Source: an uncultured Clostridia bacterium
Lineage (GTDB): Bacteria; Bacillota; Clostridia; Christensenellales; UBA1242
NCBI GenBank assembly: GCA_944377485.1
Contig: CALWFB010000005.1
Location: forward strand, 12,236-76,235
Reading direction: 5' to 3'
DNA: 64,000 nucleotides
Each line of letters starts with the position of its first letter. Position 1 is the stretch's first letter. The notes below the pieces were generated by a model that worked only from the letters and a program-made list of their open reading frames with translations, ran no database searches and had not been told where the DNA came from. This document shows, in pieces, positions 7,722 to 63,834 of the stretch. Position numbers and translations under genes: made by a program.

Positions 7722-8060
7722 CTACTTTTTAAATGGGTCTATTATCTCTTGTATCGTCATTTGTTCCATCTCTCTATCTTCCTTTAATTGATTTGCTATA
7801 TACTCTGCTATCGCCCTTTTATTTTTACCTATTACACTTAACTTTGGTGGAATTGAAATTAACATGTGTACATGGTCTGGGCAGACTTCTGCCTCATGTA
7901 TGATTACATTTTTCCATTCGCACAAACTCCTTAGAATTGCTCCTACTTCTAGTCTCTTCTGATGGAAAAACACCTTTCTTCTATATTTTGGAGCAAAAAC
8001 GACATGGTACTTGCAATTCCAAGTCGTATGTGCTAAACTAAGATTGGTTTCTTTTGACAT
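7722..8060 (-). pseudogene. tnpA: IS200 TnpA (Y1/HUH transposase) with an in-frame internal deletion of about 40 aa
   Basis: LAHTTWNCKYHVVFAPKYRRKVF and the HUH motif HVHMLISIPPKLSV are followed directly by IGKNKRAIAEYIANQLKED. Canonical IS200 TnpA has about 40 more residues (SSFMGYLKGKSS...WCRGYYVDTV) between these segments. Confidence 0.75.
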
Positions 8061-25643: not shown

Positions 25644-26114
25644 TTAATTTTGAGTATTAGGCTCTTCTGGCTTATCTAATTCCACAAATACTTCGTCCAT
25701 ATTTTTTTCCACTTTTATACATAATGCCGCAATCATTAGACCAGTAGTTAATAAATTTCCTGTGAATAATGATAAAATTAATAAAGTTATAATAAATCCA
25801 GTATTTGGTCTTGTGTTGCTATTTCTGCTATTTAATAATATTGCGAACACTAATTGTAATACTCCTATAACCATAGCATATATACCACCAAACACAAATA
25901 CTCCCTTCGTAATAGAAATAAGTGTATTTATCTCAGTTTCTGTCATTTGTACAATTGAACCATCTTCTGTTAAAATCTCTACGATTAAATCATATGTGAC
26001 AAAACTAGAACAAAACAATAAAAATATTCCAGCCATTACAATAATTACTGCATATATAATACTGATTATACTACCAATGCTTATAATCAATTTACATGTG
26101 CTTGTTTTTGTCAT
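25644..26114 (-). CDS. hypothetical 4-TM membrane protein
   Basis: 156 aa with four hydrophobic helices and an acidic C-terminal tail. Confidence 0.55.
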   Translation of the reverse strand: MTKTSTCKLIISIGSIISIIYAVIIVMAGIFLLFCSSFVTYDLIVEILTEDGSIVQMTETEINTLISITKGVFVFGGIYAMVIGVLQLVFAILLNSRNSNTRPNTGFIITLLILSLFTGNLLTTGLMIAALCIKVEKNMDEVFVELDKPEEPNTQN

Positions 26115-26224
26115 TATTTACTCCTTAAATTTCATATATATTAGATTATATCTTAGAAATGTATAATATGTCAAATATTTTAAAATATTTGTAAATTAGA
26201 TAGTTTTATGTTATAATTAAATAT

Positions 26225-27151
26225 ATGTTTGAAAAGATTGGCAATTCAACGATTTATAAGAATTTAAATCTTAGTAAAAATTTAATGCATTCGTATTTGT
26301 TCTACTCTTCTGATAGAGAATTAAACAACATAATTGCATTATTTTTTGCGAAAACTTTGTTGTGTGATAAACATATATCTTGTGGAGAATGTCCGGCTTG
26401 TAGACAGTTTGATGCACACACTCACCCTGATTTAACAATTATAAATCAAGACACAGTTAAAGTTGAAGATATTTCTAAAATCATAAATAAACTCAATACC
26501 AAACCAATTTCCGCAGAAAAAAAAGTTTTTGTAATACTTAATGCAGAAACAATTAATGAAATATCTCAAAATAAACTTTTGAAATCCTTGGAAGAACCTA
26601 ACCCTAGTAATATTTTCATAATGACCACCACCAAAACCGACAAAATTTTAAACACAGTAATGAGTAGATTAAATAAAATTTATTTACCCTATCCAGATAA
26701 TAATGACAAAAAAATCTTTGCCAACGAATTAAATAAAACAGGGATAGATATTTCAAAATATCTTGATACGAATTTTAGTTTGACAGAAATGATAAATCTA
26801 AGTAGCAATACAAATTATCAAGCCATTATTGATAATATATATATGATTTTTGAAAAACTAAATACAACCGCCGATATACCCAATATCGTTAATTCAATCA
26901 ATCTTAGCGACAAATCCACATTCTTTATGCATTTTCAAGATATCATATTGTCTGCAATTAAAGATGATTATAAAAAATATGCTCGAAATTTAATAGATAT
27001 AATCAATGCAAAATTTCCAAAGAAGGCATTACTAAAATCATTGCCATTAATTGAAGATGCTTACAAGAAACAAAGTTCAAATGTAAATTTTTTCTACATT
27101 TTAGATAATTTATTGTTCAATATGTTAAAGGAGAAATTTTTATGCAAGTAA
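26225..27151 (+). CDS. holB: DNA polymerase III delta-prime subunit
   Basis: AAA+ clamp-loader fold with a zinc module (CGECPACRQF), an SRLN sensor motif, and synteny with ricT. Confidence 0.85.
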   Translation: MFEKIGNSTIYKNLNLSKNLMHSYLFYSSDRELNNIIALFFAKTLLCDKHISCGECPACRQFDAHTHPDLTIINQDTVKVEDISKIINKLNTKPISAEKKVFVILNAETINEISQNKLLKSLEEPNPSNIFIMTTTKTDKILNTVMSRLNKIYLPYPDNNDKKIFANELNKTGIDISKYLDTNFSLTEMINLSSNTNYQAIIDNIYMIFEKLNTTADIPNIVNSINLSDKSTFFMHFQDIILSAIKDDYKKYARNLIDIINAKFPKKALLKSLPLIEDAYKKQSSNVNFFYILDNLLFNMLKEKFLCK

Positions 27152-27951
27152 TTGAAGTTTTATTATTTGATAGTCCAACTTCTGTATATTTAAAAAATCA
27201 TGACGAATTAAAGATTAATGAACAAGTAATTGTGTCTTTTAACGGAAGTCTTGAATTAGGTCTTGTAAAAGGAAGTAAAAATATAGAGGAAGAAAAGGAT
27301 ATTGCTGAATTTGTTCGAACTGCAAATAAAGAAGATAATATCAAGCGATGTGAAAACTGCAAATATGCTCGAACTTTGCTTCCTGAAATCAAAGAAGAAG
27401 CAAACAAACTTGGTTTGAACATGAAAATTGGCTTTATTTCTACCAATTTGGATAGGACAAAAATTGTAGTAAATTACACCTCAGATGAACGTGTTGATTT
27501 CAGAGAATTAATAAAAATACTCGGCAGTAAATACAAGACACGAATTGAAATGAAGCAGATAGGCAATCGAGATGAAAGCAAAGTAATAGGTGCTATTGGA
27601 ATATGCGGACGTGAAACTTGTTGTAAATCATTTTTATCCGACTTTGATAAAGTATCAATAAAAATGGCAAAAAATCAAAACATTGCACTAAATCCAACAA
27701 GAATCAATGGAATGTGCGGTAGACTCTTGTGCTGTCTAAAATATGAAGATGAATTTTATGAAGAGATGCAAAAGAAGATGCCAAAGCTCTCATCAATGGT
27801 CAACACACCTGATGGCATAGGAAAAGTGACTCAAACTGACTTTTTAAAAGAACTTGTGACGGTTGAATTTACCAAAAATTCAGATGAAGAAACCACTACT
27901 GAAATCAAAACATATAATTTGACAGATATTTCAAAAAGGGATAATAAATAG
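27142..27951 (+). CDS. ricT: PSP1-domain protein RicT (YaaT)
   Basis: PSP1 C-terminal domain with CGRETCC and CGRLLCCLKYE cysteine motifs. Overlaps holB by 10 nt, as in Bacillus. Confidence 0.88.
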   Translation: MQVIEVLLFDSPTSVYLKNHDELKINEQVIVSFNGSLELGLVKGSKNIEEEKDIAEFVRTANKEDNIKRCENCKYARTLLPEIKEEANKLGLNMKIGFISTNLDRTKIVVNYTSDERVDFRELIKILGSKYKTRIEMKQIGNRDESKVIGAIGICGRETCCKSFLSDFDKVSIKMAKNQNIALNPTRINGMCGRLLCCLKYEDEFYEEMQKKMPKLSSMVNTPDGIGKVTQTDFLKELVTVEFTKNSDEETTTEIKTYNLTDISKRDNK

Positions 27952-27963
27952 GACTAATGAAAA

Positions 27964-28638
27964 ATGAAAAAAATAGATAATTTTAAACTTGAACATTTTG
28001 ATAATGGAATCTCTGTATATCAAAGTGATAATTTTTATAAGTTTACACAAGATGCTATTCTGCTTGCCAAATTTTGCAATATAAAACATAGTGATAACGT
28101 ATTAGAGTTATGTGCTGGAAGCGGTGTAATCAGTTTTTATGCTTACTCGCTCTGCCCTTTCAATCACTTGTATTTCAATGAAATTCAAACAGAAATGTGC
28201 GAAATAATTGAAGAAAATATTAAATTCAATGGTTTCAAGCGTAAAAGCAAAATTTTTAATTGCAATTTGAAAGATTTAAAATTATCTGATTTCCCAAAAA
28301 GTTTAGATGTGATTATCTGCAATCCCCCTTATCAAAAGGTAAATGAAAAAAGTCTAATAAATGAAAGACCAGAAATTGCCTTAGCTCGCCATGAGATTGA
28401 AGCAAATTTAGACGACATCATAAAAAAATCAAGCGAATTATTAAAAGATAAAGGTCGACTCTATATGGTTCATATTGCCCCACGTGTGACAGAAATTGTG
28501 ACAAATTGTGCCAAATATAATATGCAAGTGAAACGTATGAAATTTATTTTCAATGGTGACAAAGAAGCATACCTCGTTTTAATAGAAGCGGTCAAGGGAG
28601 CAAACCCTGGCGTACGCATTACAAAGAATAAAGAATAA
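27964..28638 (+). CDS. SAM-dependent N6-adenine methyltransferase (TrmN6/YabB-like)
   Basis: SAM motif LELCAGSGVIS and catalytic NPPY. It occupies the holB-yaaT-yabB-rsmI synteny position. Confidence 0.8.
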   Translation: MKKIDNFKLEHFDNGISVYQSDNFYKFTQDAILLAKFCNIKHSDNVLELCAGSGVISFYAYSLCPFNHLYFNEIQTEMCEIIEENIKFNGFKRKSKIFNCNLKDLKLSDFPKSLDVIICNPPYQKVNEKSLINERPEIALARHEIEANLDDIIKKSSELLKDKGRLYMVHIAPRVTEIVTNCAKYNMQVKRMKFIFNGDKEAYLVLIEAVKGANPGVRITKNKE

Positions 28639-28739
28639 AACATGGCTAGCCATGTTTTTTGATATTTTATTTGATATATTTAACTATACTTTACAATAAT
28701 TTTATAATTTGATAAACTGAATTAATATAAAAGGATAAT

Positions 28740-29546
28740 ATGTTATACATTGTTTCAACACCAATTGGTAATCTAGAAGATATTAGCATGCGTGCTATAA
28801 ATGTTTTGCGTGAATGCGATATAATCGCTTGTGAAGACACTCGTCATAGTAAAATATTGCTTGACCATTATGATATCCACACCAAAACTATTGCTTATCA
28901 CAAATTCAATGAGCAAAACAGTTCTGATGGAATAATTTCTTTATTAAAACAAGGTAAAAATATTGCTCTAATATCTGATGCTGGCATGCCAGTTATCTCT
29001 GACCCAGGAAATATTCTTACAAAAAAATTAATTGAAGAAAATTTACCTTTCACCGTTGTCCCTGGTGCAAATGCCGGACTTTGTGCATTGATATTATCAG
29101 GCTTTGATGCCAGCACATTTGCTTTTTTTGGCTTCCTAAGTGAAAAAAATAAAGATTTAAAATCTCAACTCAAAAATATTAAAGATTTCAAAGGAACAAG
29201 AATTGTTTACTCATCAAAATATAATATAAATAAAGATTTAGCAAACTTATATTCAAGTTTAGGAAATGTCAAAGTTGCAATTGTTAGTGAAATTACAAAA
29301 ATTCATGAGAACGTAGATATTCAAACTTTACCTTATGCCCTATCCGAGCCAAAGGGTGAATATGTAATTGTTGTAGAATATGTTGCCGAAGAAATAACTA
29401 AACCAAACGACATTGACCTGCTAAATGAATTGAATTCATTAATTTCTTCAAAAGGTAAACAAGAAGCTATGAAAATATTAAAAGAAAAATATAACATTTC
29501 AAAATCATATATTTACAATTTATATGAAAAATCTAAAAAAATATAA
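28740..29546 (+). CDS. rsmI: 16S rRNA (cytidine1402-2'-O)-methyltransferase
   Basis: LYIVSTPIGNLEDIS N-terminus and a tetrapyrrole-methylase-type fold (SDAGMPVISDPG). Confidence 0.9.
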   Translation: MLYIVSTPIGNLEDISMRAINVLRECDIIACEDTRHSKILLDHYDIHTKTIAYHKFNEQNSSDGIISLLKQGKNIALISDAGMPVISDPGNILTKKLIEENLPFTVVPGANAGLCALILSGFDASTFAFFGFLSEKNKDLKSQLKNIKDFKGTRIVYSSKYNINKDLANLYSSLGNVKVAIVSEITKIHENVDIQTLPYALSEPKGEYVIVVEYVAEEITKPNDIDLLNELNSLISSKGKQEAMKILKEKYNISKSYIYNLYEKSKKI

Positions 29547-29616
29547 TTATTTTAGGTATTTCAATTAAATTAAATATAACTACAAATTTTATTTAATTGA
29601 CCATAGGGGTACAAAT

Positions 29617-30591
29617 ATGGAAAAACTAAAAGTTCATGAAAATACAGAAAACGAATGGGAAATAGCATATGAGTTATTTGGAAATAGAGAATCAAAAAAT
29701 CTTATATTCATGATTCATGGCGGAGGAATGGAATCTCACGAAAAAGCACCATACCTCACCGAAATAACATATGAAGTGACCGGCAAACGTGCCAAAACCT
29801 TTGAAGATATGGTTCAAGGAAACTACGAAAGATTGACGGAGTCTATTCTAAAAGACAATCCAGACATATTAATTTGTAGAATTGATTTGCGCAACCATGG
29901 TGAAAGTTTGGTTGATGGTAAAATGGATACAAGGAACACCTCATTTCCTCTTCTTGCTGATGACACTGCCGAAGTGCTAAGATATATCAAAACAAAATAT
30001 AATATTGAGCAAACACAAATTGTGGGAACGTGTATGGGCTGTTTAGTGACAGAATACATGTTGACCAATCCTAAAAATAAAGATTTATCTGAAAATGTTT
30101 CTGCGGTTGTATTTAATAGCCCACTTTCTACTCAATTTCTAGCCTTTCCTACTCCTAATGAAAAATTCAATTTCAGCAAATATCAACTACTTATGAATTC
30201 GCCAGAGGGAACGCAATTTACAAAAATGAAAGGAGTATTTGATTCAAAAGCCACATTAGAAGAATTGAAAGAACACCCTAACCTACATGTTGAATATGCT
30301 AGCCTTAATATTCCTACTCAAATATTTCTTGGATATGGTGATAGATTATTGCCATACCAAAGAGCAAAAAAATTGGCGATGGAAATGAAAAAAGTAAATC
30401 CTAATTGTGAAATCATCAAAGTAAGTCGCTCACCAGAAAAGGTCATTAGAAAAAATAATATTATCAGAAAAATTATTTCACAAGACGCCAATCATTGCCT
30501 ATATGACCCAAAATCTTCGTATGAATTTGTTTCAAAATCAACAAAATTTTTAGAAGACAATTTGATTGCATCAACCGAATTAAGCTTATAA
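29617..30591 (+). CDS. alpha/beta-hydrolase-fold protein
   Basis: HGGG oxyanion-type motif and a nucleophile-elbow position reading G-T-C-M-G (Cys instead of Ser). Confidence 0.65.
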   Translation: MEKLKVHENTENEWEIAYELFGNRESKNLIFMIHGGGMESHEKAPYLTEITYEVTGKRAKTFEDMVQGNYERLTESILKDNPDILICRIDLRNHGESLVDGKMDTRNTSFPLLADDTAEVLRYIKTKYNIEQTQIVGTCMGCLVTEYMLTNPKNKDLSENVSAVVFNSPLSTQFLAFPTPNEKFNFSKYQLLMNSPEGTQFTKMKGVFDSKATLEELKEHPNLHVEYASLNIPTQIFLGYGDRLLPYQRAKKLAMEMKKVNPNCEIIKVSRSPEKVIRKNNIIRKIISQDANHCLYDPKSSYEFVSKSTKFLEDNLIASTELSL

Positions 30592-31053: not shown

Positions 31054-31278
31054 TTAATTATCTGAAATTCCTAAAATGTAATTGGCATCAGCACCTATAA
31101 CTTCACAAATGCGAGCCAATGTTTCTAATGATGGTAGTTTATTTGTTGTCCTATATTGACTAAGCAATGCAACATTTATTTCAACTGCTTTTGCAATATC
31201 CGTATATTTCATGCCACAATTCTCTAATTCTTCTTTTAATCTTGTTTTGATTAAATCTCTTCTTATCTTATTTTTCAT
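31054..31278 (-). CDS. small XRE-family HTH regulator (copy 1)
   Basis: 74 aa with a Cro/C1-type HTH (MKYTDIAKAVEINVALLSQYRTTNKLPSLETLARICEVIGADANYILG). The homologous part begins at Met17 of the track ORF. Confidence 0.85.
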   Translation of the reverse strand: MKNKIRRDLIKTRLKEELENCGMKYTDIAKAVEINVALLSQYRTTNKLPSLETLARICEVIGADANYILGISDN

Positions 31279-31346
31279 ATAAATATTATTGCCAAACGGG
31301 CAAAATATTACTTGACTTTTGCCCAACGGGAAAGTAAAATAATATT
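31279..31346. promoter_or_regulatory. 68-nt divergent control region with two palindromic operators and back-to-back promoters (module 1)
   Basis: O1 is TTGCC-AAACG-GGCAA (31289-31303) and O2 is TTGCC-CAACG-GGAAA (31319-33). For the + gene: TTGACT (31312-17), a 17-nt spacer, TAAAAT (31335-40), with the ATG 6 nt later. For the - gene: AATAAT (rc of 31285-90) lies 6 nt before its ATG. Confidence 0.65.
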
Positions 31347-31643
31347 ATGGATTGTAAAAATAAATTTTGTGTATATAATAGAAAATTAAAATGTATAAAA
31401 GATGAAATTTCAGTGAATAAGTATGGGCAATGCGCATACATTTTCTTACCAAAAGTTAAAACTTATTTTTCCGATGAAGAAAAACAGGACCATATTGATT
31501 GTTATAAAAATATATTATCCGATTTAAGTTTGGATTGGTATCTATACACTGAAAAATTAAAAATAGAAAATACTGAAATAAAATTAACAGATGAGGACAA
31601 TTTCAAAGATATTATCAATCGTTATTTTAACCGTCATCAATAA
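31347..31643 (+). CDS. small four-Cys protein, N-terminal DUF1540-like Cys motif (copy 1)
   Basis: MDCKNKFCVYNRKLKCIKDEISVNKYGQCAYIF shows the pattern C-x4-C-x-Y-N-x4-C-x3-E-I-S-V...C. It is divergent from XRE copy 1. Confidence 0.6.
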   Translation: MDCKNKFCVYNRKLKCIKDEISVNKYGQCAYIFLPKVKTYFSDEEKQDHIDCYKNILSDLSLDWYLYTEKLKIENTEIKLTDEDNFKDIINRYFNRHQ

Positions 31644-31854
31644 TTCCCAATATATAATTAGCATCTGCCCCAATAACTTCACAAATTGTAGAAAAATTTT
31701 CTATTGAGGGTAATTTTTTTCCACTTTTATATTGACTAAGTAATGCCACATTAATTCCAACAGCCTTAGCAATATCAATATATTTCAAACCACAATTTTC
31801 TAGTTCTTCTTTCAATCTTTTTTGTATTATTTCTCTTCTTAACTGTTTATTCAT
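31627..31854 (-). CDS. small XRE-family HTH regulator (copy 2, paralog of 31054-31278)
   Basis: 75 aa, roughly 70% identical by eye to copy 1 (LKYIDIAKAVGINVALLSQYKSGKKLPSIENFSTICEVIGADANYILG). Its 3' end overlaps the preceding + gene by 17 nt. Confidence 0.85.
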   Translation of the reverse strand: MNKQLRREIIQKRLKEELENCGLKYIDIAKAVGINVALLSQYKSGKKLPSIENFSTICEVIGADANYILGIIDDG

Positions 31855-31923
31855 ATGTATATTATTTACCAATGGGCAAAAAAATACTTGACGTTTACCA
31901 TTGGTAAACAATATAATATACAT
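31855..31923. promoter_or_regulatory. divergent control region with two palindromic operators (module 2)
   Basis: The operators are TTACC-AATG-GGCAA (31866-79) and the perfect palindrome TTTACCA-T-TGGTAAA (31894-908). For the + gene: TTGACG (31888-93), an 18-nt spacer, TATAAT (31912-17), with the ATG 6 nt later. For the - gene: AATAAT (rc of 31861-66) lies 6 nt before its ATG. Confidence 0.65.
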
Positions 31924-32208
31924 ATGAAATGTAAAAATTTATTTTGTGTATTTAGTAGAAGAAATGGTGAATGCATAAAGAAGTATATCTCCTTTGATGA
32001 AACAGGAATGTGTGAGCATATTTTTTATCCAGAAAGATTAAAAGGAATGCAAGACAGTTTAAAAGAATGTTATACAAAGGTTCCAAAAGGAATGGAAGGA
32101 CACCATTATAGACGTGAGATAATGTTGTATCTTCTAAACCAAGAACTCCGAGGAATCAAAAATTCAAGCAATCCAAAACAAGAAAAAGAAAATAAATCTC
32201 AACATTAA
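31924..32208 (+). CDS. small four-Cys protein, N-terminal DUF1540-like Cys motif (copy 2)
   Basis: MKCKNLFCVFSRRNGECIKKYISFDETGMCEHIF shares the Cys pattern with copy 1, while the C-terminal halves are unrelated. The homologous region starts at Met24 of the track ORF. Confidence 0.6.
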   Translation: MKCKNLFCVFSRRNGECIKKYISFDETGMCEHIFYPERLKGMQDSLKECYTKVPKGMEGHHYRREIMLYLLNQELRGIKNSSNPKQEKENKSQH

Positions 32209-32243
32209 TGAGATTCTAATTAATACATTTTCATATATAATGT

Positions 32244-32279
32244 CGCAAAAGCACTACGAACCTACTTTTGCGTTTTTTT
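32244..32279 (+). terminator. rho-independent terminator after the second Cys-rich gene
   Basis: cgcaaaag-loop-cttttgcg followed by ttttttt. Confidence 0.7.
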
Positions 32280-32308
32280 GTAAAAAAATTTTCAAAATTC
32301 TAATAAAA

Positions 32309-32662
32309 ACCTATTAATATAGGAAAAAGAGTAATGAGAGAAAACCTTTGGTAGTCGTCGAACATACAAAAAAAGAACCTATATCAAACATAAAAATATA
32401 AAATAATTAATTTATATAGTTATCATATCAATATTAACCATTAAAGAAAAATATTTAAAATAAATACCTATTGTTGGAAAGGAAGTAATGAAGGAAAACC
32501 TTTGCAAGGTGTTCCTTCATAGATGACGGGCAATCGCCCATAAATGAAAAAATCTCACTTTATAGTGATATTTTGATTAAAACGATAAAAAGTTTATCCT
32601 ATTTCAAAGGGGGAGTAATGAGGGGGAAAGACAGTTTTCCCCCTCATATAGTGTCGCAATAG
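32309..32662 (+). repeat. three dispersed copies of a CCTATT...GGAAAGGAGTAATGAGGGAAA repeat, each with an SD-like run, an ATG and (copies 2 and 3) a hairpin that pairs the ATG
   Basis: The ATGs are at 32334, 32488 and 32618, spaced 154 and 130 nt apart. Hairpins are atgaaggaa/ttccttcat (32488-32520) and atgagggggaaa/tttccccctcat (32618-32646). Confidence 0.6.
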
Positions 32663-32728
32663 CACGCTAATGCTATTTTTGCGATTTTACAAAAAAAATC
32701 GCAACTAGCACAAGGGCTAATTGCGACG

Positions 32729-32767
32729 CAGGTTGATGGCAACTATCTATTTTCTCGGGTCGTCTCC
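32729..32767 (-). pseudogene. orphan duplicate of the 3'-terminal 39 nt of the 5S rRNA locus
   Basis: The 39-nt string caggttgatggcaactatctattttctcgggtcgtctcc is identical to 32931-32969, the 3' part of the intact 5S gene. Confidence 0.85.
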
Positions 32768-32930
32768 GCGTCACGACTCTCGTATTTACTTAATTGCTCG
32801 CATCAACTCGCAATTTTCGTCTATCTCTCGGTCGTTCCTTTCCCCCACAAAACTTAATTTTGTAGGGACCCCTTTAGATTTGGTTGTTCGACGAAAATAT
32901 AAAAAAAGAACTCGTATCAAACGAGTTCAT
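32768..32930. other. 163-nt element between the 5S fragment and the intact 5S gene; homologous to 56794-56954
   Basis: Shares co-linear blocks with the tRNA-Leu-locus element: CGTC, ATTG(C/T)TCGC, CTCGCAATT, GTAGGGACCC and GACGAAA. Its right end contains the 5S terminator. Confidence 0.6.
32900..32928 (-). terminator. rho-independent terminator of the 23S-5S unit
   Basis: gaactcg-tatcaaa-cgagttc with a T-run on the minus strand, immediately 3' of the 5S gene. Confidence 0.7.
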
Positions 32931-32933
32931 CAG

Positions 32934-33053
32934 GTTGATGGCAACTATCTATTTTCTCGGGTCGTCTCCAACCAAATATCTTCGACGTGTAAGAGCTTAA
33001 CTTTTGTGTTCGGAATGGGAACAAGTGGAACCTCTTAGCTATTATCACCATCA
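32934..33053 (-). rRNA. rrf: 5S ribosomal RNA
   Basis: The reverse complement reads tgatggtgataatagctaagaggttccacttgttcccattccgaacacaaaagttaagctctt...gttgccatca. The conserved CCGAACAC/GTTAAGC core and a terminal helix are present. Ends are accurate to about 5 nt. Confidence 0.88.
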
Positions 33054-33280
33054 TGGTACATTGAACATCAATTTTCATTGATTTAGAACAATGACAGCTG
33101 CATACTTCGGACATTTGACTTTTTGGCAAATTGCTATGCAATTATAGCCTTTTTAGTCAATGTCCTTCATTACTTCTTTTCCTTTTATCATAATATGATT
33201 ATTAAATAATGAAATAAGAAGACAACGAAGTAAATATAAATACCGTAATTTAGTCAAAAATCATTTCTCAAAAGGAAGGT

Positions 33281-36207
<2,927 letters not shown>

Positions 36208-36417
36208 GTCTTTTTGTTCCTTTGATTAATGTTCTTTGGCAAAATTACAAATGAAATTGAAAAATAATATTGATGCTATTACTTTTCTCGTATTTGTATT
36301 TACTAAAATATGCAGTTGTCATTGTTCTTAAGTTCTACATAAGGAAGTGACAAAAGTCACTATTATATAGGTATTCAAGCAAGTAGCCAAGTGCTCCCTT
36401 ACGTTGAATGCAATATT

Positions 36418-36446
36418 AAGATACCACACATCAAAAGTTTTGTCAA
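36418..36446 (-). promoter_or_regulatory. sigma-A-type promoter directly upstream of the 23S rRNA
   Basis: On the gene strand: TTGACA (36446-41), a 17-nt spacer, TATCTT (36423-18), about 200 nt upstream of the 23S 5' end. Confidence 0.6.
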
Positions 36447-36844
36447 CGGTTTTTTAAAACTTTTTTTAAAAATTTTAGAATTTTTTTTATAAATTTTCTT
36501 TTTTTCGTCAAAACTTCTATAAAATAGACAATTTTCGAGCAAAAAAGATTCATAAAAGTACCTAAATTATCCAACTTATGTGAAAAATTTGTAAAAATTT
36601 TTCTATCTGCCGATTAAAAACTTTGTTTTTTTATTAAGTTTCATTATATTTTGTCATCACGTCTATTCTTCAATCAATATACAATATTGAAAATTTTTTT
36701 ATAAATTTCACTTTCTAGAATGTTATAAATGCAATTTTATTAACTATAATCTTTAATTTACTATTTATATATGTAATTATATAAATTTCTTTATCTATAT
36801 TATATATAATATATACCTTTATATACCTTATTATATATTTAAGT

Positions 36845-61253: not shown

Positions 61254-62492
61254 CTAATCCTCACTAATTTCTCGATTCTCTGAATTTTGAGATTTATTAT
61301 TTTTATTTTTTACTATCAATTTCCCATCTACAATTTTATATTTCATAAATCTTATAAGAATATATGCTACAAACAAAACAATGCTCTGTGAAATCCTTCC
61401 AATATCCGTACAATATGGTGACATAACAAATACTGAAAGTATTGTCCATAATACCATCGTAAAAATATTTAATGTAGTATTAAGCGCAGGAGAGTATTCA
61501 ATCTGAGTATAAATCCCTAAAATTATAGCATATGTATCCATCATCATATCTAAAACTTGGAATAACAAATAAACAACCACAATAGGAATAGAAACATCAA
61601 TAAAAGCAACCAATATAAAAGTCATGATAACACTCGATAATGCTAAAATAATAGTATAAAAATATGCATTACGCATTTCTTTTTTGTAATTATATCTATT
61701 CTTTGCGATATCAACTTTTGCCACTGTATCACGTGCCGTCAACATGTCCCACTGCGTGTCAGTGCAAAGTGCAACCAAGTTTAAAGCAAGCAAATACTCC
61801 TCGCCCGCCTGAAAAGCATTTCTATAACCAAAAGTATAAATTACAAACATAAAAAGTGCATTGATAATATTACTAGATTCATAGCGTAAATTTTTAAAAA
61901 ATTTGAAATCAATTTTAAACTTTTCAAACTGCCAAATGTATAAAGAAACTACGTATATTAACATTATGCCAAGAGTAATCAACAATGCAACAAAGGTATT
62001 TGGAATACACGCACATAGCAAAATTACAATTAAAAAATTGATAATGTTAAAACTGAATAGATGAATATTTGCCAGTTTTTCTTTATCTTCAAAATATAGT
62101 TTTTCTATAATAAATTGCACTAATGTTTGTTCAAATAATTGTGCTATCCCATAAATTACATAGATTTTGTAAAAGTCAATATTTTGACCAAAAAATGTGA
62201 TATATTCATCTATAAATATTATTGGCAAAGAAAATATAATTATTGAAAAAATTGTGCCCCAAAGAATGCTATTCCAAACTGCGTTTTTATCATGTTCTTT
62301 CTCTTTTCGGATATTTGCGCCAGAGCCAAAAAAACAGCGAAATATTATCCAGACAAATTGAAATGCATAACAAATTGAAAATACATTTGCTATCCTGTCA
62401 TCTCCTAATACAAAAGAAAGAATAATCCACGATAGAACGGGGATTATTGAGTATATAAATAGGCCACTTCCAATGCTAAATAGACGTTTCAT
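61254..62492 (-). CDS. polytopic membrane protein (paralog A; flippase/MOP-like topology, family not verified)
   Basis: 412 aa with about 12 TM helices. Roughly 65-70% identical by eye to the adjacent 410-aa protein. Confidence 0.6.
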   Translation of the reverse strand: MKRLFSIGSGLFIYSIIPVLSWIILSFVLGDDRIANVFSICYAFQFVWIIFRCFFGSGANIRKEKEHDKNAVWNSILWGTIFSIIIFSLPIIFIDEYITFFGQNIDFYKIYVIYGIAQLFEQTLVQFIIEKLYFEDKEKLANIHLFSFNIINFLIVILLCACIPNTFVALLITLGIMLIYVVSLYIWQFEKFKIDFKFFKNLRYESSNIINALFMFVIYTFGYRNAFQAGEEYLLALNLVALCTDTQWDMLTARDTVAKVDIAKNRYNYKKEMRNAYFYTIILALSSVIMTFILVAFIDVSIPIVVVYLLFQVLDMMMDTYAIILGIYTQIEYSPALNTTLNIFTMVLWTILSVFVMSPYCTDIGRISQSIVLFVAYILIRFMKYKIVDGKLIVKNKNNKSQNSENREISED

Positions 62493-62601: not shown

Positions 62602-63834
62602 TTAGTTTTTATCTTGATTTTTTGTTTGAATTTTACCATGTAAATTCTCTTTAACAATCAATTTGTTTTCAACTACTTTATATTTAGAAAATCTTATTAC
62701 ACTAAATGAAATAAATAACATTACACTTTGACTTATTTGTCCAATATCCGTACAATAAGGTGACAATATTAATAGTGATAAAATAGTTCTAATTATCATG
62801 GTAGATAAATTAAGCACTGTATTAATAATTGGTGAATATTCAATCTGGGTATAAATTGATAATATAGAAGTATATGTATCCAAAAACATTCCTATTATTT
62901 GAAAACTTAAATAAGTGATAAGCAATTTTGCAGAAACATTTATAAATGACACCAGTATTAATGACATTATAACGCTTGATAAACCAACTATAATTGTAAA
63001 TATATATGCTTTTTTTATTTCGGAAGCATAATTATATCTATTTTTAGATATATCAACTTTCGCCACAATATCATAAGCAGTCAGCATATCCCACTGTGCA
63101 TCTGTACATAGAGCCACAATATTCAGTGCTAAAAGATATTCTTCCCCTGCACTAAATGCATTTCTATATCCGAATAAATAAATTATTAGCATAAAAAGCG
63201 CATTGAACAAATTCGCAGACTCATATTTTATGTTTTTAAAAAATTTGAAATCAATTTTAAATTTTTGAAATTGCCAAACATACAGACATATTACATAAAT
63301 CAATAATACAGCCAATGTGGCAATCAATGCGATAAAAGTATTTTTAATACAAGCACATAATATAATAAGAATCAAAAAATTTAAAATATTGAACACAAAA
63401 ACATGAATATTTGCTAATTTTTCTTTATCTTCAAAGTATAATTTTTCGATTATAAATTGTAAGAGAGTTTGAACAAATAACTGTGTAATACCATATATGA
63501 CATATATTCTATAAAATTCTGCATCCTGTCCGAAAAAATTTATATATTTGTCTACAAATATTATAGGAATTGAAAACACAATAATCGCAAAAATTGTTCC
63601 CCAAAAAATTCCATTCCATGTTGCATTATTATCGTGTTCTTTTTCCTTTCTAATGTTGGCACCTGAACCGAACAGACATTTAAATATCGACCAAACAAAT
63701 TGAATTGCATAGCAAATAGAAAATACATTTGCTATCCTACTATCGTCTAATATAAATGAAAGAACTACCCATGAAAGAATTGGGATAATTGAATATATGA
63801 ATAATGAACTTCCTATTCCAAATAATCGTTTCAT
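62602..63834 (-). CDS. polytopic membrane protein (paralog B)
   Basis: 410 aa, co-linear with 61254-62492 (MKRLF.IGS.LFIYSIIP.LSW..LSF.L.D.RIANVFSICYA.QFVW...). Confidence 0.6.
   Translation of the reverse strand: MKRLFGIGSSLFIYSIIPILSWVVLSFILDDSRIANVFSICYAIQFVWSIFKCLFGSGANIRKEKEHDNNATWNGIFWGTIFAIIVFSIPIIFVDKYINFFGQDAEFYRIYVIYGITQLFVQTLLQFIIEKLYFEDKEKLANIHVFVFNILNFLILIILCACIKNTFIALIATLAVLLIYVICLYVWQFQKFKIDFKFFKNIKYESANLFNALFMLIIYLFGYRNAFSAGEEYLLALNIVALCTDAQWDMLTAYDIVAKVDISKNRYNYASEIKKAYIFTIIVGLSSVIMSLILVSFINVSAKLLITYLSFQIIGMFLDTYTSILSIYTQIEYSPIINTVLNLSTMIIRTILSLLILSPYCTDIGQISQSVMLFISFSVIRFSKYKVVENKLIVKENLHGKIQTKNQDKN

Follow-up and report, generated by a model that had tools for sequence, protein, structure and literature searches.

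An att-like duplication of the 5S rRNA gene 3' end in uncultured Clostridia and its possible origin as an old recombination scar

Scars bounded by attL and attR repeats, CIMEs among them, are known from the 3' ends of tRNA, tmRNA and protein genes. In the passage of PMC5704250 devoted to them, CIMEs are defined by the lack of integration genes between the two repeats. The locus described here lies in a 64-kb window, by which we mean the whole stretch of DNA analyzed, from an uncultured Clostridia bacterium. It resembles such scars in its direct repeats of the 3' end of a structural RNA, in a gene that is rebuilt by the proximal copy, in the occurrence of empty sites in relatives, and in having no integration genes between the repeats. 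It differs from them in its target, a 5S rRNA gene, in its non-coding content of 163 nt, and in that neither an autonomous element nor an integrase was found where these were searched for. It is also ancient, confined to a single site, and diverging together with its host. A search of full-text literature yielded no case of 5S as an integration target.

Homology-facilitated illegitimate recombination (HFIR) provides a second point of comparison. The microhomology segments involved are given as 3-10 bp in the relevant section of PMC6382021, citing de Vries & Wackernagel 2002. One joint at related loci, between the displaced 5S fragment and an XRE gene, is similar to HFIR scars in having strong rRNA-operon homology on one side and a short microhomology on the other, although with 11 nt the latter slightly exceeds the range stated in that section of PMC6382021. 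In contrast, the original 39-nt duplication is unlike such scars in that no donor state was found and its joint shows no visible microhomology; we infer that an HFIR joint could land upstream of the end of its anchor and thereby create a duplication. Tandem or extra 5S genes, as in E. coli rrnD, form the third group. Here too, the first 5S is followed by another 5S-derived sequence that has a terminator of its own; however, only its last 34 nt are 5S-like, and nothing upstream of these resembles 5S.

The duplicated 5S 3' end and the surrounding rRNA locus

The 23S-5S operon of the window is encoded on the minus strand, as are the parts of the locus at 32310-36207 that are described below. It is headed by the 23S rRNA gene (33279-36207; Rfam RF02541, 2764.9 bits), followed by a spacer (33053-33278) that includes one inverted copy of a hairpin-module motif at 33163-33182, and by the sole 5S rRNA gene of the window (32936-33052), which is intact and matches Rfam RF00001 over model positions 1-120 with 87.4 bits. 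The operon is solitary, as the 64 kb contain no 16S gene and no tRNA gene adjoins it, the rRNA genes being unlinked. The 23S gene is bracketed by a 26-nt inverted repeat (33082-33107 and 36306-36331; 88% complementary) that is probably a processing stem. In the spacer, five related loci (L001, L007-L009 and L016) carry a 32-nt hairpin with a flanking 6-nt direct repeat, GAAGGA, at 33163-33168; this hairpin is absent in the window and in other strains.

According to the earlier note on this DNA, the 5S 3' end is exactly duplicated over 39 nt, and this was borne out. The 39-mer CAGGTTGATGGCAACTATCTATTTTCTCGGGTCGTCTCC occurs in two exact copies (39/39 identity) at 32931-32969 and 32729-32767, and no third copy was detected in the window at ≤3 mismatches. 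The chance expectation for such a match was 0 (100 shuffles). The repeat comprises the last 34 nt of 5S and 5 nt of trailer. The proximal copy completes the full-length 5S, and the distal copy, a displaced 5S 3' fragment, is located downstream of the gene at an offset of 202 bases, with 163 nt separating the two. Over the region of the fragment, no second 5S was recovered with Rfam RF00001 even at E ≤ 10; in a scan of 32100-33300 against Rfam families, 5S alone passed, and the remaining matches were weak and at chance level.

Read in the direction of the 5S gene, the order is 5S, the intrinsic terminator T1 (32901-32928; GAACTCG-TTTGATA-CGAGTTC followed by T7), which is the present 5S terminator, a 114-nt core (32768-32881), the fragment, and a second intrinsic terminator, T2 (32691-32727). 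T1 and the core make up the 163 nt between the copies, and the core is situated directly upstream of the fragment in every fragment-bearing lineage. A 44-nt stretch consisting of the T1 3' half and 22 further nt (32879-32922) has 82-89% identity to a paralogous sequence at 32347-32389. Two helices are found in the core: hairpin H1 (32843-32867; CCCUACAAAA / UUUUGUGGGG), which occurs in C-G, U.G and U-A forms across loci, and helix H2 (32773-32835), formed by the strands 32830-32835 (ACGACC) and 32773-32779 (GAGUCGU). The inner junction on the side of the fragment, at 32767/32768, reads ..GACGC/GGAGACG.., the slash marking the junction, and identity ends abruptly at the same base in all lineages compared. 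On our reading of the alignment to the Rfam model, this inner repeat boundary would correspond to the apex of 5S helix IV (GGUUG-GAGA-CGACC).

Beyond T2, a hairpin and M_G module (ATGAGGGGG...CCCCCTCAT, then TACTCCCCCTTT; 32598-32689) is followed by a terminator-like hairpin (32547-32569) with an M_A module (32467-32546), a unit of strain-variable copy number that spans 32467-32569. An AT-rich spacer (32390-32466) and a 5'-truncated T1 copy (32347-32389) occupy 32347-32466, and the right half of an M_E hairpin module occupies 32310-32351. An intact M_E module is seen only in L005/L006 and in L013, the contig of which ends before reaching 5S. The hairpin modules (32310-32690 and 33163-33182) belong to a family with four occurrences in the 64 kb, all at the rRNA locus. 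On the plus strand, they consist of a Shine-Dalgarno-like motif, GTAATGARRG, and a palindrome of the type ATGAxxxx...xxxxTCAT. Stem changes are compensated between lineages, with ATGAGGGGG/CCCCCTCAT being replaced by ATGCGGGGG/CCCCCGCAT in L019, and the number of modules differs among strains (L012, L026, L030). Small plus-strand ORFs in the modules, which start with ATG behind the Shine-Dalgarno-like motif, were rejected as candidate genes: the encoded peptides are unconserved between modules, and only the hairpins are kept.

At 31054-32208, we observed a divergent gene pair in two tandem copies that are about 78% identical; it encodes a small XRE helix-turn-helix protein and a cysteine-rich protein of 94-98 aa, the latter having no match in Pfam. 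The gene content from 5S to a hydrolase gene differs in every lineage and includes genes of 116 aa, 249 aa, 121 aa or 188+119 aa. Elsewhere in the window, two adjacent paralogous genes on the minus strand (61254-62492 and 62602-63834) encode membrane proteins of about 410 aa without a Pfam match.

Related loci and the age of the insert

Relatives were sampled by a scan of species-representative genomes, which yielded L001, a MAG labelled 'uncultured Clostridia bacterium', by a metagenome scan, which yielded L002, and by way of neighbouring proteins, which yielded 33 further loci. The duplication structure was recovered from other samples in L001, L002, L003, L007-L011, L016 and L017, in some of these with a shortened fragment. 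Since the same structure occurs in independent assemblies from other samples, at least nine in number, rRNA-associated misassembly, against which the earlier note had cautioned, is excluded. Within the species of the window, flanks diverge by ≤2.4%. The full 39/39 duplication is present in L003 and L007-L009, while in L002, L010 and L011 the fragment is shortened to 23-25 nt, with a nearby hairpin copied behind it in inverted orientation. L001, a separate lineage, has the identical shortened fragment (23-25 nt).

In two close strains, L005 and L006, the site is empty. The 5S is joined straight to CCTG-c-T2, which equals the window minus 202 nt, and the sequence on either side is otherwise identical to that of the window. 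The empty site that the earlier note had suggested looking for thus exists in exact form, and the difference between these strains and the window is an insertion or deletion bounded by the 39-nt repeat. In a neighbour-joining tree of a 5-kb flank, L005/L006 nest among filled strains, and the sister lineage L001 is also filled, which suggests that the empty sites may be secondary products of a precise deletion between the 39-nt repeats. However, L005/L006 also keep an intact M_E module of ancestral type, the left half of which resembles L014. Such an ancestral-type module in strains nested among filled ones indicates that inter-strain recombination blurs the history of the site. More distant relatives were also sought via homologs of the XRE proteins P0024 and P0026. 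Of the loci obtained, L034 has a different genomic context, and L035 includes only the last 30 nt of 5S.

Core and fragment are present in lineages with flanks only about 74-83% identical to those of the window. A sister lineage represented by L016/L017, with a spacer like that of L001, carries the same insert with nine substitutions. Its fragment measures 38 nt and has one mismatch to the gene copy: the fragment has C, as does the 5S gene of L001, and the gene has A. The earlier note had taken the copy fused to the gene for an incoming replacement, which agrees both with the separate terminator of the fused copy and with the L001 5S-gene allele in the distal fragment of L016/L017.

The most diverged example is L019, in which the flanking genes are about 74% identical to the window and the neighbouring gene content differs. 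Two identical 39-mers of a variant sequence (GGAGACGGCCC...GATCG...) are 201 nt apart. The core homolog is only about 65% identical to that of the window, yet it has the same left boundary (..GACGC/GGAGACG). Behind the two copies are terminators that share homology and differ by compensated stem changes. The first of the two 39-mers, located at the contig edge and preceded by the GC typical of the fragment, may be a second fragment rather than the gene. The core diverges from that of the window roughly in step with the flanks. In contrast, the fragment of L019 differs from that of the window at only 2 of 39 positions, against about 35% of the positions in the adjoining core. Furthermore, in the species of the window and in the second species the fragment shares the A/C allele of the gene, unlike in L016/L017, which look like an apparently unconverted intermediate. 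This better conservation of the fragment and the shared allele are read as the result of occasional gene conversion, by which the gene may have kept the fragment similar to itself; the alternative would be selection on the fragment.

A second species and transfer of an rRNA operon between species

L014/L015, L022 and L024-L033 represent one further species, with flanks that are 97.9% identical to each other (L014 versus L025) and 76-83% identical to the window. Contigs of 153 kb and 360 kb are among L022 and L024-L033. In L014, the 5S gene is followed by the species' own diverged array, about 80% identical to the window, without core and without fragment. In the other loci (L022 and L024-L033), a tract that starts about 320 nt upstream of 23S matches the window at 93-99% identity as far as the fragment, where identity drops abruptly. 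This shared tract corresponds to 32732-36527 of the window. The break occurs inside the fragment, the last 11 nt of which (TTGCCATCAAC) recur in the native XRE gene of L014. The XRE gene of L022 and L024-L033 is truncated exactly at TTGCCATCAAC, and about 1.4 kb of native sequence is gone. The joint between fragment and XRE gene is a clear case of the HFIR pattern, with an rRNA anchor and an 11-nt microhomology, and it marks the end of an imported segment consisting of the whole 23S-5S operon and a non-coding tail, exchanged between species with flanking genes that are only about 77% identical.

The order in L022 and L024-L033 is 5S, T2, hairpin modules, AT-rich spacer, 5'-truncated T1, core and fragment, with the spacer and truncated T1 running straight into the core, and with an M_A-type module in place of T2 after 5S in L027, L029, L030 and L033. 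The two 5S tails are separated by 405-983 nt. This order is a circular permutation of that of the window (T1, core, fragment, T2, modules, AT-rich spacer, truncated T1), which accounts for 32879-32922 and 32347-32389 being paralogous over 44 nt. Conversion of either order into the other is possible by excision via one pair of repeats and re-entry via the other, or by a tandem duplication followed by a deletion.

The 5S gene is immediately followed by T2 both in L005/L006 and in seven of the second-species loci (L022, L024-L026, L028, L031 and L032). A T1 homolog, without core, directly follows the 5S 3' end at the contig edge of the distant L035. T1 and T2 thus appear to be alternative 5S terminators of different lineages. 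The window has both types in tandem, and each is preceded by a 5S tail copy.

Origin of the duplication

The tandem arrangement of two terminator types, each behind a 5S tail, favours a recombinant of two diverged versions of the locus and an origin by HFIR-like recombination or repair. We judge the chance to be about even that the duplication represents a recombination scar of this origin that is old, was inherited vertically and was later reshaped by ordinary recombination. The event would have taken place in the single 23S-5S operon of a common ancestor of this uncultured low-GC Clostridia clade. Incoming donor DNA would have consisted of a 5S 3' end, one terminator type and about 114 nt of unrelated sequence, and it would have met a recipient chromosome in which 5S was followed by the other terminator type. 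One crossover would have occurred within rRNA homology, and the other joint, an illegitimate one, would have fallen within 5S, at the helix IV apex. The gene would thereby have come to end with the incoming copy and T1, and the resident last 39 nt with T2 would have been kept downstream as a dead fragment. Such an event would be an instance of HFIR or an equivalent repair process, and no dedicated recombinase would have taken part. Later recombination at the repeats and modules is seen in the apparent exact loss of the 202 nt, the truncation of the fragment, the circular permutation and the variable number of modules.

Among the options listed in the earlier note, a repair or duplication product is the best fit, given the alternative terminators T1 and T2 and a second junction that is a microhomology joint. 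A simple tandem duplication was rejected, as the 163 nt are not copied from sequence beyond the fragment. The origin step itself is one that we infer: the predicted donor, with T1 and core as the native flank of 5S and no fragment, was not found among the related loci, and no obvious microhomology was noticed at the original junction (..GACGC/GGAGACG..). Both results count against an HFIR origin. In addition, the module has long been retained although 39-nt direct repeats should delete easily, which speaks against a mere scar, and a repeat of 39 nt is short for RecA-type conversion, which counts against the conversion step. The long retention and the doubly changed pairs of the core are hints of selection rather than of an inert scar.

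A possible but on the whole unlikely reading is that the locus is the relic, or a cis-mobilizable miniature, of a tyrosine-integrase element targeting the 5S 3' end. The 39-mers would then be attL and attR, T1 and core would be the arms of attP, and the filled and empty states would result from an integrase supplied in trans. The overall footprint is as expected for such an element, with a duplicated gene 3' end, a gene rebuilt by an incoming copy that brings its own terminator, and an exact empty site. The repeat starts at the apex of a stem-loop, as in tRNA genes, where att sites are located at the anticodon loop. Likewise, the one-base difference between the copies in L016/L017, the constant attachment of the core to the fragment, as would hold for an attR arm, and the lineage-specific gene content from 5S to the hydrolase gene are consistent with integration. 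CIMEs, in which attL and attR are kept and the integration genes are lost, are moreover a described class in the passage of PMC5704250 concerned.

The searches for a recombinase and for further copies oppose this reading. The Pfam analysis (54 of the 62 listed ORFs were scanned, and recorded hits were used for the other eight, located at 25644-30591 and 31054-31923) detected no tyrosine or serine recombinase in the 64-kb window, in line with the earlier note, which had described the insert as lacking one. The matches are to housekeeping genes, the sole mobile-element exception being a truncated IS200-family TnpA on the minus strand at 7722-8060 (Pfam Y1_Tnp positions 2-85 of 121, E = 6e-20), 25 kb from the duplication. 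The genes called in 35 related loci included no recombinase, integrase or transposase. With a covariance model of the core, no further copy was detected in the window or in 14 loci, and the 163 nt had no further copy in the window or at any of the related loci. No match to 5S tail or core, and no autonomous relative, turned up in phage, plasmid and IMG/VR collections, the lone plasmid match to the query covering 5S sequence only. The earlier note had proposed a miniature or relic site-specific integrative element, possibly with a recombinase next to further copies of it. Neither a recombinase nor a further copy was found in the window or the 35 related loci, and the age of the core, which has diverged together with its hosts, also speaks against the proposal. 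Signs of mobility, such as several sites or a phylogeny discordant with that of the hosts, were not seen: there is one site and one copy, the core tracks the flanks, and the one clear transfer moved the entire rRNA operon together with the array and stopped at a microhomology joint. The remaining rearrangements observed here proceed via homologous repeats or microhomology and lack a fixed crossover site. The junction of a circularized module would read ..GTGACGC-39-mer-ATGAACTCG.., and a circle of 202 bp would, as we see it, be a poor substrate for recombination. A larger island reaching up to the hydrolase gene with a distal att fragment was rejected, as the window holds no further 5S-like stretch. 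A transposon or MITE was rejected on account of the missing terminal inverted repeats, the 39-nt duplication and the single copy.

Rather unlikely, in our view, is that the 114-nt core and the 5S tail form a functional structured non-coding element, either an RNA with a copy of the 5S 3' domain or a DNA site. In this case selection, besides gene conversion, would keep the fragment identical to 5S, which is compatible with either account of the origin. Pairing in H1 and H2 is kept through sequence changes, as reflected by the C-G, U.G, U-A series of H1 and by three pairs of H2 in L019 that are changed on both sides. Four double-changed pairs were counted, compared to 0.8 expected, and none of 500 shuffles reached four; pairing is only 30-50% in shifted registers. 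Conservation amounts to about 95% in the fragment, compared to about 65% in the adjacent core, and the module persists in several lineages despite deletion-prone flanking direct repeats. However, these counts derive from ten distinct core sequences (n=10), all three H2 changes stem from the L019 lineage, and the structure was derived from the same sequences. A consistent promoter is missing: T1 is directly upstream of the core in the window, and a different context is upstream of it in the second species. The fragment is reduced to 23-25 nt in several strains, the module is missing in L005/L006 and L014, and no Rfam family matches. Pairing of the core with the fragment in the manner of 5S helix I was rejected, as its duplex energy is not significant (P = 0.09) and four substitutions break it in L016. 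With the same low probability, core and 5S tail would be a structured non-coding element unique to this clade and maintained by selection, or a minimal attP-like module that re-enters 5S. If so, identity to the gene would be kept by selection or repeated re-integration and not by chance, a proposition that we hold to be just as doubtful. An RNA of this kind could act in 5S maturation or in the titration of ribosomal proteins.

It is improbable that the fragment is what remains of a decayed second 5S gene, with an ancestral tandem of 5S-terminator-5S-terminator having lost the 5' 78 nt of its second gene and the core representing a remnant of the spacer and the 5' half. Tandem 5S genes are known in other bacteria, the homologous terminators behind both L019 copies are what tandem units would have, and there is a weak alignment of the core with one zone of the 23S-5S spacer. 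None of the alignments of the core was significant, however, whether to the 5S 5' half (P = 0.86), to the whole 5S (P = 0.17) or to the 23S-5S spacer (P = 0.10 for the window and 0.40 for L019), and a derivation of the core from the spacer, or of its tail from a decayed 5S 5' half, was rejected on these grounds. An older degenerate 5S tail within the insert (GGAACGACCGAGAGATAGA) was likewise rejected, its local alignment being non-significant (P = 0.17). The negative Rfam result for a second 5S at E ≤ 10 and the abrupt end of identity at one and the same base in all lineages also argue against decay, and an intact second 5S is present in no relative. Finally, an assembly artefact or a transposase target-site duplication, brought to mind by the misassembly-prone nature of rRNA loci and by the truncated TnpA, is scarcely credible given the identical structure in at least nine independent assemblies, the permuted form on the contigs of 153 kb and 360 kb, an insert with neither terminal inverted repeats nor other copies, and a length of 39 nt, which is too long, since to our knowledge all known transposase target duplications are far shorter and IS200/IS605 elements make none.

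The duplication adds a case to a type of event already known, here at an unusual gene, and its general interest is modest. It means that a perfect att-like footprint at a structural RNA gene is possible and can be maintained without an integrase, which calls for caution in island-finding pipelines keyed on duplicated 3' ends of RNA genes. If core and 5S tail were indeed transcribed and structured, they would constitute a new class of small RNA derived from 5S. The second species indicates that rRNA operons can be homology anchors that carry adjacent DNA across species boundaries.
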